This document shows positions 3,843-28,401 of a stretch of DNA of 28,401 nt, piece after piece. How positions within the stretch are numbered: the stretch's first letter is position 1; every line of letters begins with the position of its first letter. Under the pieces are notes generated by a model. That model saw nothing but the letters and a program-made list of their open reading frames with translations, was not told where the DNA came from and ran no database searches. The stretch comes from Candidatus Onthoplasma sp. (lineage in GTDB: Bacteria; Bacillota; Clostridia; Christensenellales; UBA1242), in the NCBI GenBank assembly GCA_045120995.1, contig JBGVFL010000063.1:1-28401 (forward strand). Reading direction: 5' to 3'. The position numbers and the translations under genes were made by a program.

Positions 3843-5843
3843 ATGAGTGAGTTTATTCGTCCAAGACCCAATTTCCCTAAAAAAGCAGTTATAACTTCTG
3901 GAATGCCATATGGAAATAAGTTACTTCACTATGGTCACGTTGGAATGACACTTAGAGCAGATGTTTTTGCTCGTTTTATGCGTGATAGAATTGGAAGTGA
4001 TAACGTTATTTTCGTTTCCGGAACAGACTGCTATGGTTCTCCAGCTTTGGAGAGCTTTAGAAAACTCCAAGAATCAACTGGATATAGCGGAACATTAAGT
4101 GATTATGTTGAAAGCAACCACGTGAAGCAAGCAGAAATATTTAAAAAATATGAAATCGGTTTTAATGGATACTATGCTTCAGCTTTAGGAAGAGCAAAAG
4201 AAATTCATGAAGAGGTTTGTGCTGATTTTTTAAACAAATTAGTTAAAAATAATATGGTAACAAAACATTCTTCTTTACAATTCTTTGATAGAAAATTCAA
4301 CACTCTATTAAATGGTCGTCAGGTTGTTGGAAAATGCCCTATAGATGGTTGTTTGAGTGAGCATGGTTATGCTGATGAATGCAGTTTAGGGCATCAATAT
4401 CTTCCTCAAGATTTGATTGATCCTGTTAGTGCATTAAGTGGAGAAACCCCAGAACTTGTTAAGATTGAAAATTTATATTTTGACTTAGATAAATGTATAC
4501 CTGTTTTAACTGATTGGATTGCTTCAATTGAAAGAGAAAAAGACACGCCATCTTTTATGGTTAAAGAAATTAAAGAATTCTTCAAATTACCAGAAATCTA
4601 TATTAAACGTTCATACGCTGAAGAGTTAAATGCTTTAAGCAGTGTTCTTCCTCCGTATAAAGATATAAGTGTTAGTGAAAAAGCGCCAAGCATAACAATT
4701 CAATTTGAAACATTACCTCTTCGTGAAAAAGCTTGCGAAATATTATCTCAAAATGGAATTAGATATAGAACAGGAAAAACCCTAACTCCATTTAGATTGT
4801 CTGGCGACATATCTTGGGGAGTTCCTTGTCCTGAAGTTGACGGACTTAAAAATCAAACTTTCTATGTTTGGCCAGAAAGCTTATTTGCTCCGATTTCATT
4901 TAGTAAAACATACCTTGAAAGCATAGGCAAAGATGAAAATGAATGGAAAAAATACTGGTGTTCTAAAGATGGTAAAGTTTACCAATTCCTAGGCGAAGAC
5001 AACCTATATTTCTATGGTCCAGCTCAACAAGCAATGTTTATTCATTATAATGGTGAAAAATCAAACATAAATGCAGACAATGGCGAATTACAAATTACAA
5101 AAATTAATCCAATTAAATCAATTTTATATTTAAATCAAAAAGCAAGTTCATCTGGAAGTTTAAAACCACCAATGGCTGAAGAATTTTTGAATTACTACAC
5201 TCCTGAACAATTTAGAATGCACTTCTTAGCTATGAACTTAACAAATAACAATGTTAGTTTAATGCCAAAGGCATTTAATCCTGATGCTAAAGACGAATTA
5301 GACCCAATGGTTAGAGAAGGAAACTTATTGACTAATGTTTACAATAGAATTTTAAGAACCATTTTCTATTCAACGCAGAACCACTTTAACGGTGTTATTC
5401 CTAAAGCTGAAATTAGTGATGATGTTATGAAGATGTGTGAAAAAGCAATTCTTGATGTTGAAATGTTTATGCACGATAAAAAATTCCATCAAGTTTATAA
5501 TACTTTAGATGTATTCATTAGAAACATTAACAAGTTCTGGGTTAAAGATGTAAACGGAGCAGATGAAGAAAAACTCAAATCATTAACTGTAAACACTCTT
5601 CAAATGTTATTCGTAGCAAACACCTTGCTTCACCCAATTGCTCCTAGTGGAACTGAAAATGTGGCTGATTATATTGGTCTTGATAAATGTAAATGTTTTA
5701 ACTGGGAAAATATTTTTGGTTCATTCTATAACGTTTTATTAAAAGATAGAGGTTTAACGTTAACAACTCTTAAAGAAAAAGAAGATTTCTTTGCTCGCCA
5801 CCCTTGGCAATTAGAAGAAATGCTTAAACAAGAAAATAACTAA
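3843..5843 (+). CDS. metG: methionine--tRNA ligase (no C-terminal Trbp111-like domain)
   Basis: ITSGMPYGNKLLHYGH (HIGH motif), FVSGTDCYG, Zn knuckle CPIDGC...ADECSLGH, RLSGDISWGVP, YVWPES, KMSKS-equivalent KASSS; SD AAGGAG. Confidence 0.93.
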   Translation: MSEFIRPRPNFPKKAVITSGMPYGNKLLHYGHVGMTLRADVFARFMRDRIGSDNVIFVSGTDCYGSPALESFRKLQESTGYSGTLSDYVESNHVKQAEIFKKYEIGFNGYYASALGRAKEIHEEVCADFLNKLVKNNMVTKHSSLQFFDRKFNTLLNGRQVVGKCPIDGCLSEHGYADECSLGHQYLPQDLIDPVSALSGETPELVKIENLYFDLDKCIPVLTDWIASIEREKDTPSFMVKEIKEFFKLPEIYIKRSYAEELNALSSVLPPYKDISVSEKAPSITIQFETLPLREKACEILSQNGIRYRTGKTLTPFRLSGDISWGVPCPEVDGLKNQTFYVWPESLFAPISFSKTYLESIGKDENEWKKYWCSKDGKVYQFLGEDNLYFYGPAQQAMFIHYNGEKSNINADNGELQITKINPIKSILYLNQKASSSGSLKPPMAEEFLNYYTPEQFRMHFLAMNLTNNNVSLMPKAFNPDAKDELDPMVREGNLLTNVYNRILRTIFYSTQNHFNGVIPKAEISDDVMKMCEKAILDVEMFMHDKKFHQVYNTLDVFIRNINKFWVKDVNGADEEKLKSLTVNTLQMLFVANTLLHPIAPSGTENVADYIGLDKCKCFNWENIFGSFYNVLLKDRGLTLTTLKEKEDFFARHPWQLEEMLKQENN

Positions 5844-5943: not shown

Positions 5944-6630
5944 ATGAACAAATCAGCCACAAGAATAATTAAAAACATATTGAGTTCAATTTTAGTTGTT
6001 CTAATTTTTTTGTTCGCTTTCATAACTTTAATAAATGTTTCATATACTGCAATTTATTCAAAAACTCAAGTAAGAGGATTTTCAATGCAACCAACTTTAA
6101 ATATAAATATGAAAGACTCTAACGCCAAAGGTGACACAATTTATATTAATATTTATAGTTCATTCACAAATGATGATATTGTTGTTGCAAAAGTAAATTG
6201 GTATGAACACTATATTATTAAACGCATTGTTGGAACTCCAAATGATAAGGTTCAAATAAAAGATGAGGGAACCCATTTCGGCGTATACGTAAACGATAAT
6301 CTTTTATATACAAAAGTAAAAACTGGTTCAGCCTTAACATATCCAAGAACTGGAAGTGTTGGCTACTATGCAGACTATCTTGATTTTTTAGAAAATGATG
6401 AATTTAAATCTTGGGTCAAAGAAGAAAATGGAAAAAAATATATCCAGCTTGGAGAAAATGATTATTTCCTTATGGGTGACAATTGGGGGCAAACTACAGA
6501 CAGCATAAGTCACGGACCTGTAAAAACCACAGAAATAATTGGTAAAGTTGATTTAATTCTAGATGTTAAAGAAGATAAACCATATATGGCAACTTGGTTT
6601 TTTATTAAAAAATTATTTTCAATAAATTAA
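5944..6630 (+). CDS. lepB: signal peptidase I
   Basis: N-terminal TM helix, catalytic Ser in GFSMQPTL, Lys in IIKRIVG, box E YFLMGDN...DS. Confidence 0.92.
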   Translation: MNKSATRIIKNILSSILVVLIFLFAFITLINVSYTAIYSKTQVRGFSMQPTLNINMKDSNAKGDTIYINIYSSFTNDDIVVAKVNWYEHYIIKRIVGTPNDKVQIKDEGTHFGVYVNDNLLYTKVKTGSALTYPRTGSVGYYADYLDFLENDEFKSWVKEENGKKYIQLGENDYFLMGDNWGQTTDSISHGPVKTTEIIGKVDLILDVKEDKPYMATWFFIKKLFSIN

Positions 6631-24516: not shown

Positions 24517-25866
24517 ATGTTTTTACTTGACCAATGGAAAAAAGTTTTAAACAAACTTGAAAATGAAGTTACTGCTGTTACTTTCGATTTATGGATTAAC
24601 ACTTTAACTCCAATTCAATATGCAAACGATGAACTAATTATTTTAGCTCCAAGTGTAACTGCTAAAAACCAAGTTAAACAACCCGGCATTTTTGAAAAGA
24701 TAACAAAATGTGTTCGCCTTGAATTCACTCCTTACACTTTTGTTAGAATTATGGAAAGTCAAGAATATGAAGCAAGCATTCGCAAACAAGAAAAAGAACT
24801 TGATAGCATAATGAAAGAACAACCAAATTTAAAATCAAAATTTAACAAAAAGTATACATTCGAAAATTTCGTTGTTGGTAAATCAAATCAAGTTGTTTGT
24901 GCCGCTATGCAAAGCGTTGCGCAAAACCCTGGTCAAAAATTTAATCCTTTATTCATTTATTCTGGAGTAGGTTTGGGAAAAACCCACTTACTTCACGCTG
25001 TTGGAAATTATTTAAACGAACACAGACCCGAACTTAACGTGTTGTATGTAACTTGTGAAAAGTTTACAAGTGACTATATTCAATCAATCAATAACAGCAA
25101 AGAACGTTCTAATCAAGAATTTAGAAATAAATATCGTAATGTTGATGTTTTAATGGTTGATGATATTCAAGCTATCAAAGGCAAAATTAGCACACAAGAA
25201 GAATTTTTCAATACTTACAATGAACTTTATCAAAACAATAAACAAATCATTATTGCTTCAGACCGACCACCAAAAGAAATGAGTGAGTTGGAAGAAAGAC
25301 TTCGTTCTCGTTTCAGTTCTGGCTTAATTCAAGATATTCAAGAACCAGACTATGAAACAAAGGTTGCAATTATTAAAAAGAAATGTAGTCAAGAGGGTTA
25401 TCTTGTTGATGAAGATGTTGTCGACTTTATTGCACACAAAACAGGAACAAACATTCGTGAAATGGAAGGAATTTTATCTAAGGTTGTTTTCTTTAGTGGA
25501 CTTCTTGGCAAAACTCACACAACAATAGAAGATGCTTATGAAGCTTTAAAAGATTATGGCGAAACAGAAAGAACAGACTTAGATGCAGATAAAATCATAA
25601 ACACTGTGTGTGATTTCTTTAAAGTTACTAGAGAAGAGCTTGTTGGTAAAAAGAAAAACAAAGAAATTGTTGAACCAAGACAATTGTGTATCTACTTAAT
25701 CAATGAAATGTTAAATATTCCTCTAACAGCAATTGGAACATTGCTTGGAGGAAGAGATCATACAACTATTATGCACGCAAGAGATAAAATTGGTAACCAA
25801 GTTAAAGTTAATCCTCACATTAGAACTTTGGTTAACGATATAAAATCTAGACTTTTAAAATATTAA
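24517..25866 (+). CDS. dnaA: chromosomal replication initiator DnaA
   Basis: YTFENFVVGKSN, NPLFIYSGVGLGKTHL, LMVDDIQ, RLRSRFSSGL, domain IV GGRDHTTIMHA; SD GAGGTG. Confidence 0.99.
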   Translation: MFLLDQWKKVLNKLENEVTAVTFDLWINTLTPIQYANDELIILAPSVTAKNQVKQPGIFEKITKCVRLEFTPYTFVRIMESQEYEASIRKQEKELDSIMKEQPNLKSKFNKKYTFENFVVGKSNQVVCAAMQSVAQNPGQKFNPLFIYSGVGLGKTHLLHAVGNYLNEHRPELNVLYVTCEKFTSDYIQSINNSKERSNQEFRNKYRNVDVLMVDDIQAIKGKISTQEEFFNTYNELYQNNKQIIIASDRPPKEMSELEERLRSRFSSGLIQDIQEPDYETKVAIIKKKCSQEGYLVDEDVVDFIAHKTGTNIREMEGILSKVVFFSGLLGKTHTTIEDAYEALKDYGETERTDLDADKIINTVCDFFKVTREELVGKKKNKEIVEPRQLCIYLINEMLNIPLTAIGTLLGGRDHTTIMHARDKIGNQVKVNPHIRTLVNDIKSRLLKY

Positions 25867-26616: not shown

Positions 26617-27714
26617 ATGAAATTTAGATGTGATGGACTAGAATTAAGCGAAGCTATAAGTGTTGTGTCTAAAGCTATTAGCAGTAAAACAACCAGTCAA
26701 ATTCTAGAAGGAATTAAAATGGTTTGCGCTGAAGATAAACTTATTTTGTCCGCTACTGATTTAGAAATGAGTGTTGAAAAAACAATTAGAGCCGAAGTTT
26801 ATAATGCTGGAGAAACAGTTGTTCCTGGTAGATTGTTTGGTGAATATATTAAAAAATTAACAAACGAACAAATTGAGTGTGAATTAAACGAAAAAAATCA
26901 ACTAAGAATTGCTTATACTGATAGTGAAGGAACATTACAATGTATGGAAATCAGTGAGTTCCCTCAAATTAAAGAAGTTGAGAAGAATGATTTCTTTGAA
27001 TTAAGCAAAGAAGATTTCAAGGCTTTAATAAACAACGTTTATTATGCTGTTGCTCAAGATGATAGTCGTCCTATTTTGAAGGGTATTTTAATTGAAACAA
27101 CTGGCACAAATATTCGTGCTGTTGCTGTTGATGGTTGTCGTCTTTCTATCGCAAACAAAACTTTAGTTAACACAACTTCAGACTTTAGAATTATTGTTCC
27201 AGGAAAAAATATCTATGAAATTATGAAAATGATGGATAATGAAGGAACAATAAAAGTTTTTGTTCATTCAAATAACATTATGGTTGATCTTGGTGACACT
27301 ATTGTTGTAAATCGTTTAATAGACGGACAATTTATCAACTATAAACAAATTGTTCCAAAGGATTTTTCAACTGTTGTAACAATCAACAAAGAACAACTTG
27401 AAGATGCTATTGATAGAGCTAGTGTTCTATCACGTATTGATAAAAATAACCTCGTAAAATTCGACATTAAAGAAAAGAACTTAATGTTAACATCAAATAG
27501 TGAAATTGGTAACACAAAAGAAAATATAACAGTTGGAGTTAAGGGTAATGACTTAAATATCTCTTTCAACTCAAAATATTTCAGCGATTGCTTAAGAGTT
27601 ATTGATAACACATATGTTAAAATGAACCTTAATTCAGCAATTCAACCTTGCGTTATCACACCATGTGAAGGCGAAGATTTTGTGTTCTTAATTCTTCCTG
27701 TTAAGGCTCGTTAA
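26617..27714 (+). CDS. dnaN: DNA polymerase III beta sliding clamp
   Basis: LSATDLE, RPILKGIL, AVDGCRL, RLIDGQFINYKQIVP, FNSKYF, LILPV; SD GAGGAG; follows dnaA. Confidence 0.98.
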   Translation: MKFRCDGLELSEAISVVSKAISSKTTSQILEGIKMVCAEDKLILSATDLEMSVEKTIRAEVYNAGETVVPGRLFGEYIKKLTNEQIECELNEKNQLRIAYTDSEGTLQCMEISEFPQIKEVEKNDFFELSKEDFKALINNVYYAVAQDDSRPILKGILIETTGTNIRAVAVDGCRLSIANKTLVNTTSDFRIIVPGKNIYEIMKMMDNEGTIKVFVHSNNIMVDLGDTIVVNRLIDGQFINYKQIVPKDFSTVVTINKEQLEDAIDRASVLSRIDKNNLVKFDIKEKNLMLTSNSEIGNTKENITVGVKGNDLNISFNSKYFSDCLRVIDNTYVKMNLNSAIQPCVITPCEGEDFVFLILPVKAR

Positions 27715-27730
27715 ACCACTATAAAATAGA

Positions 27731-27770
27731 AAGTTATCCACATTACAACTAAATTTGTGGATAACTTTTT
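27731..27770 (+). terminator. dnaN terminator-like hairpin whose arms are two perfect DnaA boxes
   Basis: AAGTTATCCACA(27731-27742)-13-TGTGGATAACTT(27756-27767)-TTT. Confidence 0.7.
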
Positions 27771-27781
27771 TTGTTATTTAT

Positions 27782-27810
27782 TTGCTATAAATTTTAGATT
27801 GTGATAATAT
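27782..27810 (+). promoter_or_regulatory. sigma-A promoter for the tRNA-Ser transcript
   Basis: TTGCTA-17-TGaTAATAT; implies a leader of about 230 nt before the tRNA. Confidence 0.6.
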
Positions 27811-27834
27811 GCATATAGCCAACAGGAATTAAAA

Positions 27835-28035
27835 ATGTCGCAAAAGATTGGTGTCCTCACGAAACGAATGTTTCGAAGGGTAAAAGGAGTAAGCGAGCAA
27901 AGGTTTATATTTGCAGTCAGCAAACTAGCAATAGCGAGACTTGCGACGTATGGAGAGTTGTTGGAGTGGTTTAACCCTAAAAATTATCAAGTAATTTTCA
28001 GGGGACCCGAATTTTGTTCAACCACTCAGCAGTTT
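27835..28035 (+). ncRNA. structured non-coding leader upstream of tRNA-Ser (unassigned)
   Basis: Outer stem GTCGCAA(27837)/TTGCGAC(27941); hairpins CGAAAC/GTTTCG, GCAAA/TTTGC and CTA-GCAA-TAG; then a tRNA-5' copy that pairs with an antisense segment. No family recognised. Confidence 0.45.
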
Positions 28036-28048
28036 AATATTATAATTT

Positions 28049-28136
28049 GGAGAGTTGTCGGAGTGGTTGAACGTGTCGCTCTCGAAAAGCGATAAGGTGA
28101 AAGCCTTCGGGGGTTCGAATCCCCCACTTTCCGCCA
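28049..28136 (+). tRNA. tRNA-Ser(CGA)
   Basis: Acceptor GGAGAGT/ACTTTCC, anticodon arm TCGCT-ctCGAaa-AGCGA, long variable arm AAGGT-gaa-AGCCTT, T-arm GGGGG-TTCGAAT-CCCCC, G discriminator, encoded CCA. Confidence 0.96.
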
Positions 28137-28155
28137 GAAAAACAGAGGAGGAAAA

Positions 28156-28401
28156 ATGAAACAAAACTTAACATTAAACGAACAAAAAATTCTTGCATCA
28201 AAAATTTTAAAGGTTGATATTAGTATTATTGAAAAGGTGGGTTTTGTTTTTCCTGATTCTGAAGTGTTGGTTGTTACAATTTCAAATGAAGGAACAGAAA
28301 TTCCCCTAAACTATAAAGGTGGAGCAACAACTTTAATTGTGGATAAAAAAGGAGAATTTCTTTTATATTCAGGATCAAGATTATCTATATCTCAATTGTT
28401 T
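28156..28401 (+). CDS. hypothetical protein (3' end runs off the window)
   Basis: SD GGAGG then ATG 28156; open for 82 codons to the window end (MKQNLTLNEQKILASKILKVDISIIEKVGFVFPDSEV...KGGATTLIVDKKGEFLLYSGSRLSISQLF). Confidence 0.7.
   Translation, partial: MKQNLTLNEQKILASKILKVDISIIEKVGFVFPDSEVLVVTISNEGTEIPLNYKGGATTLIVDKKGEFLLYSGSRLSISQLF

Follow-up and report, generated by a model that had tools for sequence, protein, structure and literature searches.

Rickettsia palindromic elements (RPEs) have been catalogued in R. bellii, where protein genes contain 53 of the 526 copies and the tmRNA gene contains one (PMC1458961). Among insertion sequences, IS1549 and IS1634 are accompanied by long direct repeats of variable length, from 8 to 514 bp (PMC2266710), and bridge RNAs carry guide segments that match both strands of their target (PMC11208160). 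Here we describe a locus in Candidatus Onthoplasma in which a partial copy of a tRNA 5' end, a hairpin and an inverted tRNA segment precede an intact tRNA-Ser(CGA) gene. Our preferred reading, to which we give a probability of about 0.65, is that an undescribed repeat of MITE/RPE-like kind left these three parts as the scar of its insertion and of the accompanying target duplication.

The window analysed is one entire contig of 28,401 nt from a metagenome-assembled genome (0.79 Mb, 30% GC, labelled G000). It carries dnaA (24517-25866), dnaN (26617-27714) and, separated from dnaN by a 335-nt spacer, the tRNA-Ser(CGA) gene on the plus strand (28049-28136; called by ARAGORN and scoring 50.8 bits as an Rfam tRNA). 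Directly after dnaN lies a palindrome with 22-nt arms and two TTATCCACA-type DnaA boxes (27721-27777), which may serve as the dnaN terminator, as a site for DnaA binding, or in both roles. A DnaA-box palindrome flanking dnaN keeps its position across the genus (L083-L087). A putative tRNA-Ser promoter was located by eye on the plus strand and comprises TTGCTA followed by an extended -10 element, TGTGATAAT (27782-27808); it scores under threshold in a consensus scan, and the orthologous loci L084 and L085 have related sequence at the matching place. A search of the stretch from this site to the tRNA gene found no terminator, and the whole leader block is probably co-transcribed with tRNA-Ser(CGA). 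In RNA data, related sequence came from a single metatranscriptome run and was confined to the dnaN 3' end. An 86-aa open reading frame that overlaps the tRNA (27835-28095) has no Pfam match and was treated as spurious. Downstream of the tRNA, a further frame of at least 82 aa, also without a Pfam match, is cut by the contig end (28156-28401), and the genes at this place differ in G011 and G020. In L087 (2595-2830) the slot after dnaN holds tRNA-Ser(GGA) in place of tRNA-Ser(CGA), followed by an rpmH-like frame, so the identity of the tRNA here varies within the genus.

Between the putative promoter and the tRNA the leader begins with a full-length copy of a repeat that we term D (27834-27950, plus strand). 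It is followed by the partial tRNA copy, or decoy (27951-27975, plus strand), which matches 28048-28072 at 23 of 25 positions, with mismatches to the tRNA at 27962 and 27972. The earlier note on this DNA had reported 22 matches in 24, which holds for the tRNA part alone, and the direct repeat extends by one extra base. Next comes a hairpin module, M, on the minus strand (27970-28008), which in minus-strand reading consists of GGGTCCCC, the hairpin, AGGG and an A-rich tail. Its arms (27975-27986 and 27992-28003) pair at 11 of 12 positions around a 5-nt loop and form the enclosed hairpin that the note had described (27975-28003). A short A/T linker (28009-28015, plus strand) joins M to the antisense, in which tRNA nt 13-24 recur in inverted form (28016-28027, plus strand). 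Sequence comparison bears out both pairings claimed for this segment, 12 of 12 with the D-arm region at 28061-28072 and 11 of 12 with the decoy at 27964-27975. An AT-rich spacer (28028-28048, plus strand) completes the leader. The possibility, raised in the note, that this layout is unique to one assembly can be set aside. A 650-nt contig from an unrelated run (X4) covers 27807-28300 with seven substitutions and spans the module without a gap, so the layout is real, and it is also seen in other species, which were assembled independently; an assembly artefact is thereby ruled out. Three strain variants from runs X3 and X4 (G27952A, G27955A and T27962C) all lie inside the decoy. Three of the seven differences over 494 nt thus fall in its 24 nt, and 27963-28211 contains none. 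Two of the variants alter bases 1 and 4 of the acceptor-like strand and the third regains identity with the real tRNA.

D is a structured RNA-like repeat of about 118 nt. The copy in the leader scores 104 bits (E 2e-23) with a covariance model built from 15 copies (A2, R1), and a search with this model places D in 62 of 64 Candidatus Onthoplasma genomes at 2-39 copies per genome of about 1 Mb. G000 itself has 6-7 copies, those elsewhere in the genome lying at C24:4999-5108, C31:5969-6077 and 6389-6482, C21:16222-16330 and C32:6363-6429, and two of its copies stand immediately 5' of tRNA-Leu(UAG) and tRNA-Gly. The helices of D covary, and the ratio of 13 G.U to 5 A.C pairs on the plus strand favours that strand. 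The leader has no Rfam match besides the tRNA; at E values up to 10 there are only weak sub-threshold matches, those near the tRNA being overlaps with the tRNA itself, and the related loci return tRNAs only. Known RNAs were considered and rejected as identities for D: SRP RNA sits on C15, type A RNase P RNA sits on C14, and 6S RNA, likewise ruled out, was not found anywhere in the genome. The family appears to be undescribed so far.

Direct repeats scoring at least 15 border 42% of 59 full D copies, as against 1% of permuted controls, and they are unusually long at 17 to more than 50 nt. One perfect 36-nt repeat, for example, corresponds to the last codons of a gene, and repeats of about 50 nt are found at other copies. 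Short inverted flanks show a weak enrichment (19% versus 9% in controls). On these figures we rejected a closing stem of inverted flanks as a family-wide origin of the antisense. As inverted flanks are not general, the antisense would be specific to events of the M type.

D is also strongly associated with the ends of tRNA genes. By eye, about one third of the copies in G005 and G057 adjoin tRNA genes or partial tRNA copies, and some stand immediately 5' of a tRNA. After one copy come nt 1-35 of tRNA-Ile, some 165 nt ahead of the real tRNA-Ile; after others, with the intact gene likewise nearby, come tRNA-Leu nt 1-25 or the 5' end of tRNA-Ser(GGA) as reverse complements. At three loci in these genomes (L162, L169 and L182) the 3' end of D (…GACGNT) exactly meets the reverse-complemented 3' end of a tRNA, the tRNAs being Asn, Arg and Ser-CGA; read on the tRNA strand, the tRNA end runs into antisense D. 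From its sequence this junction would fit tRNA-primed copying. Protein genes are also entered by the repeat. At C24:~4960-5110, an FtsW/RodA-like frame is continuous at its 3' end with D and reads on into the repeat for about 20 codons, and beyond the element stands a second copy of the gene's last ~38 nt. The fusion is kept in three species (G000; L024 of G020; L026 of G009). Two further short repeats travel with D in G005 and G057 (L162, L164, L165, L190), in L086 and at C31 of G000: one that begins GTCATACCGAG lies 3' of D copies among these loci, and one that contains TTGCTTGCAAAATGATTAAAGCAGGCAAA lies 5' of D and, in L086, before tRNA-Ser.

M itself is probably an inverted and truncated 5' domain of a D-family element, to judge from a shared motif and a recurring arrangement. 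The 5' domain of D has a signature of GGGTYCCC, two bases, an A/U hairpin, (A)GGG and an A-rich tail. Searched as GGG-NN-CCC-N16-38-AGGG-N-AA, this signature occurs at three sites in the 0.79-Mb genome, two D copies and the minus strand of 27970-28008, compared with 0.1 in shuffled genomes. At several loci in G005 and G057 a full copy of D runs directly into an inverted 5' domain of D, and the same composite with a linker is found in G000, G006 and G007; most D copies have no such right arm. At one position of the stem, five of ten aligned M copies have a plus-strand A x C, which is G.U on the minus strand, a polarity like that of D. The covariance model R1 aligns to M by its 5' part at E 0.34, and as this score is non-significant, the homology of M and D rests on the motif and the recurring arrangement. 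A profile search with nhmmer, D against the M copies, gave 0 hits; the M sequences are too short for it and the motif count was used in its place.

The layout recurs in the genus. A strict pattern and a covariance model (A3, R2), run over the 64 genomes, place M in about 12, at one locus each, with tandem copies in G010 and G007. It stands before tRNA-Ser(CGA) at the same dnaN locus in G000, G011 and G020, and before tRNA-Ser(GGA) in G010 (as two tandem 99-nt units), G018 and G002, immediately behind a good promoter in G010 and G002. The note had asked whether other tRNA loci and related genomes share the layout, and six genomes do so, before two tRNA-Ser isoacceptors; the other class II tRNA genes of G000 do not have it. 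Beside tRNA-Leu(UAA) M is rearranged and in opposite orientation (G006, G065, G067 and G007, in tandem in the last), G069 has it with a tRNA 3' fragment, and in G074 it has no tRNA context. The order at the Ser-type loci is constant: tRNA nt 1-17, a CTTTTAC-like junction, M, a few bases, the antisense to the D-arm, an unconserved AT-rich spacer and the full tRNA. At the Leu-type locus L043, sense tRNA-Leu from -4 to 11 is followed by inverted M, nt 13-25 and inverted D, with the real tRNA-Leu 50 nt further on.

The boundaries of these parts suggest how they arose. In G011, G020, G010, G018 and G002 the match of the upstream copy to the tRNA ends after nt 17. From this comparison, nt -1 to 17 of the decoy would be the target duplication, and nt 18-24 would overlap the element's own CTTTTAC-like junction. 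The copies also extend past the mature 5' end of the tRNA (AAAT in G018, TTATTAY in G010, CTAT in G006), which marks a duplication at the DNA level and not a convergent design of the RNA. In G011, G020, G002 and G018 the position equivalent to the linker is a sense copy of tRNA nt 18-24, which runs directly into its own reverse complement. This junction in four sister modules has the appearance of a fold-back or template-switch mark. Compared with its own tRNA, the antisense equivalent covers 12-14 nt in G010, 12 of 13 in G018 and at least 9 in G002; it is imperfect in G011 and degraded in G020.

The module is sporadic in its distribution. Over the 46 orthologous dnaN loci compared, it was found at 3 of about 27 dnaN-linked tRNA-Ser(CGA) loci examined. 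It is missing from the three closest relatives examined with a tRNA downstream of dnaN (L083, L085 and L086; 95-97% DnaN identity, 27-36% divergence at fourfold sites), all of which retain tRNA-Ser(CGA). L083 has the promoter and tRNA only, D directly adjoins the tRNA in L085, and a different element precedes it in L086. G011 and G020 have the module, at fourfold divergence of 53-56% (53% in G011). Between G000 and G011 identity is 31/33 in the M core, 80/88 in the tRNA, 74/108 in D, 12/23 in the tail and 18/41 in the spacer, the last at random level and so showing no interspecies conservation. The identity of M against saturated silent sites could reflect constraint. Before tRNA-Ser(GGA), however, the distal stem of M varies freely, and shared recent ancestry, by spread or re-insertion, fits this variation better than constraint.

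The sporadic distribution bears directly on the central claim of the earlier note, that the leader is a dedicated maturation switch in which the antisense pairs with the decoy first and with the real D-arm afterwards, gating the folding of tRNA-Ser(CGA) and its processing by RNase P. The two alternative pairings, with a kinetic and a thermodynamic winner, were reproduced by prefix folding: in prefixes that end at or before 28060 the antisense is predicted to pair with the decoy, and from 28075 onward, once the real D-arm is present, the minimum free energy (MFE) fold pairs it with that arm instead. A switch is also favoured by the occurrence of the layout before two tRNA-Ser isoacceptor genes in six genomes, where the antisense tracks the local tRNA, and by the promoter-like site with no terminator found behind it. 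However, the MFE fold predicted for 27951-28136 (-65.8 kcal/mol) is a misfold, in which the antisense and spacer pair with the real 5'/D-arm region and the decoy supplies the 5' strand of the acceptor stem. The best folds with the real acceptor stem reach -51.5 kcal/mol, 14 kcal/mol above it. No ligand, sensing domain or input signal is evident for the leader. The genome also has a tRNA-Ser(UGA) gene, on contig C45. This tRNA should decode UCG too, by wobble.

Duplex energies separate the two pairings on which such a switch would depend. Against a shuffle background of about -12.5 to -13 kcal/mol, the tRNA:tail duplex is predicted at -25.2 kcal/mol in G000, -26.2 in G010, -23.4 in G018, -21.7 in G002 and -17.3 in G011, and at -11.9, which is background, in G020, where the antisense has decayed. 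This pairing is thus kept in four to five of six lineages, and in four of them is strong (-22 to -26 kcal/mol) and matched to the lineage's own tRNA. The decoy:tail duplex rises above background in G000 only (-16.3 kcal/mol) and lies between -10 and -13 kcal/mol in the other five lineages. With decoy:antisense pairing strong in G000 alone, the two-state design is not conserved. The hairpin, moreover, is a fragment of a dispersed repeat family, and partial tRNA copies beside D are common at other tRNAs. Together with the module's presence at so few of the dnaN-linked tRNA-Ser(CGA) loci and its absence from close relatives with the same tRNA, these results make a dedicated switch decidedly unlikely. 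A switch of tRNA maturation would be a new regulatory principle, and the evidence points away from it.

The persistence of the tRNA:tail duplex raises the alternative that M and the antisense form a domesticated, guide-like module, whose hairpin is a handle and whose class II tRNA antisense acts on folding, modification or turnover. In both Ser and Leu types an antisense to the tRNA 5' region always follows the M-oriented hairpin by 0-8 nt, and the Leu-type RNA would be antisense to tRNA-Leu from -4 to 11 and 13-25. The base of the hairpin and AACCC are invariant in ten aligned M copies and nearly so in four later ones, the distal stem covaries, and the tRNA:tail duplexes of four lineages fall at -22 to -26 kcal/mol. 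This must be set against the sporadic occurrence of M, in about 12 of 64 genomes, against the A x C mismatch that half of the copies have in the plus-strand stem, and against the copies in G074 and G069, which do not show this pattern or have other tRNA fragments instead. An associated protein gene was not found, and the RNA data with related sequence reach the dnaN 3' end only. We regard a domesticated guide as unlikely. Stated more broadly, as a working RNA module derived from the D family that pairs with the class II tRNA D-arm, the idea has an outside chance. Such a module would act in cis on tRNA-Ser and in trans on tRNA-Leu, delaying or steering folding, processing or modification, and the decoy would be a by-product. 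A functional leader device of some kind thus keeps a small share of the probability, since the lasting complementarity between antisense and tRNA is not fully accounted for.

Two established classes of element could have left similar traces. A direct repeat of a tRNA segment around foreign DNA, with an intact tRNA beside it, is the classical att pattern, and the contig ends 265 nt past the tRNA; the leader could then be the decayed att scar of an integrative element of integrase type, a phage or an island whose attachment site was the 5' half of the tRNA. The repeats, however, are only 73 nt apart, and what separates them is a piece of a repeat family dispersed in the chromosome. D copies show this pattern too, at the 3' ends of protein genes and at other tRNAs, and by eye no recombinase or integrase frame lies near the inspected loci. 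To our knowledge, duplication by the integrases known to target tRNAs affects the 3' part of the gene. An att scar is accordingly very improbable. The note had itself offered, as its alternative, the scar of an element that integrates at tRNA 5' ends; a scar comes close to the reading we favour, and the involvement of an integrase-type element does not stand.

The second class is the IS110 family. The hairpin would belong to a bridge-RNA-like end, with loops matching the tRNA target in sense and antisense. On a low-GC, unrelated metagenomic contig (L198/L270), an IS110-family recombinase frame (PF01548, E 2.8e-33) is preceded, at a distance of about 75 nt, by a near-identical hairpin. Against this, the recombinase is present in 0 of the 64 genus genomes, the match of R1 to the L198/L270 leader is non-significant (E 0.27), and the metagenome pattern search itself enforced most of the shared motif. 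We also know of no IS110 insertion that makes duplications of 17-50 nt, and consider a remnant of this type highly unlikely. Most contigs returned by the metagenome pattern scan were environmental and unrelated, and no additional Onthoplasma loci came from it. An M-like hairpin (CCCTAAAAA..TTTTCAGGGAACCC, the A x C position included) is an intergenic repeat in many unrelated sediment contigs with a GC content of about 0.5; on the low-GC contig its minus-strand instances are L198:433-462 and L270:1732-1761, and L196, L207, L216, L224, L238 and others are further contigs with it.

For the insertion scar, our preferred reading, the following course of events can be proposed. M, as a short derivative of D, would have entered the tRNA-Ser(CGA) gene at its D-loop region, and the 5' part of the gene, from about nt -1 to 17-24, would have been duplicated as a long direct repeat of target-site type. 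A target duplication of 17-50 nt near a gene end leaves one intact gene and one truncated copy, and in a tRNA gene no other kind of insertion would survive. The outcome would be the intact tRNA downstream and the truncated copy upstream, adjoining an older full D copy. The inverted D-arm copy, a perfect 12-mer in G000, may have arisen with the insertion or soon afterwards, and we infer a fold-back origin for it. As a side effect, the leader may misfold some tRNA precursors.

Several observations count against a scar. The 64 genomes yielded no transposase partner: both DDE_Tnp_1 (PF01609) and the IS110 recombinase (PF01548) are present in 0 of 64, a count to be read with the caution that metagenome-assembled genomes may miss IS copies. 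The reverse transcriptase domain RVT_1 occurs in 11 of 64 genomes, unrelated to D copy number. The antisense is not simply explained by the insertion habit of D, given the 19% versus 9% frequency of inverted flanks, and its complementarity to the tRNA is strong and lineage-matched in four of six lineages. Neutral decay alone would predict such complementarity only in the case of recent insertions or of frequent gene conversion. M and D, moreover, are linked as homologues by a motif signature, the model score being non-significant (E 0.34). D itself may be a new kind of structured element, mobile or retro-mobile, which captures the ends of tRNAs and leaves target duplications of 17-50 nt with no known transposase.

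The locus brings to light a structured and apparently undescribed family of repeats carried by gut Candidatus Onthoplasma in their reduced genomes, one that clusters at tRNA gene ends and has long target duplications, partial tRNA copies and no visible transposase. It also carries a caution, as partial tRNA copies with complementary partners can be insertion footprints that mimic designed RNA switches. The retained tRNA-antisense segments could conceivably affect tRNA supply.

In comparison with known systems, the leader resembles T-box, attenuator and riboswitch platforms in having two mutually exclusive 5'-leader helices, as predicted, with a kinetic and a thermodynamic winner. It differs from them in that no sensing domain is evident, no Rfam model matches, the alternative helix is not conserved and the element is dispensable in close relatives; the product would also be a tRNA and not an mRNA. 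The likeness to tRNA att sites lies in the direct repeat of a tRNA segment around an insert, with the intact tRNA retained. Here, however, it is the 5' part that is duplicated, the insert is only 73 nt, no recombinase accompanies it and the habit extends to non-tRNA sites. Like MITEs, D is multi-copy, dispersed, shorter than 300 nt and non-autonomous, with target-site duplications, and where D is joined to an inverted D 5' domain, the composite resembles a MITE in its long terminal inverted repeats. Unlike MITEs, most copies lack the right-hand inverted repeat and the internal helices covary in an RNA-like manner, and D is set apart from MITEs and from IS1549 and IS1634 by the absence of an IS1634-like/DDE_Tnp_1 transposase from the 64 genomes. 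With the RPEs D shares a short length (100-150 nt), structure, multiple copies, a reduced genome and no recognisable transposase, and both occur inside protein-coding and RNA genes, as D does at the 3' end of the FtsW/RodA-like frame. The two are unrelated in sequence, and D is distinguished by its long flanking repeats and its strong association with tRNA gene ends; we know of no partial gene copies beside RPEs that would correspond to the decoy. How D has spread in genomes of 1 Mb is a question of the same type as that posed by the Rickettsia palindromic elements.
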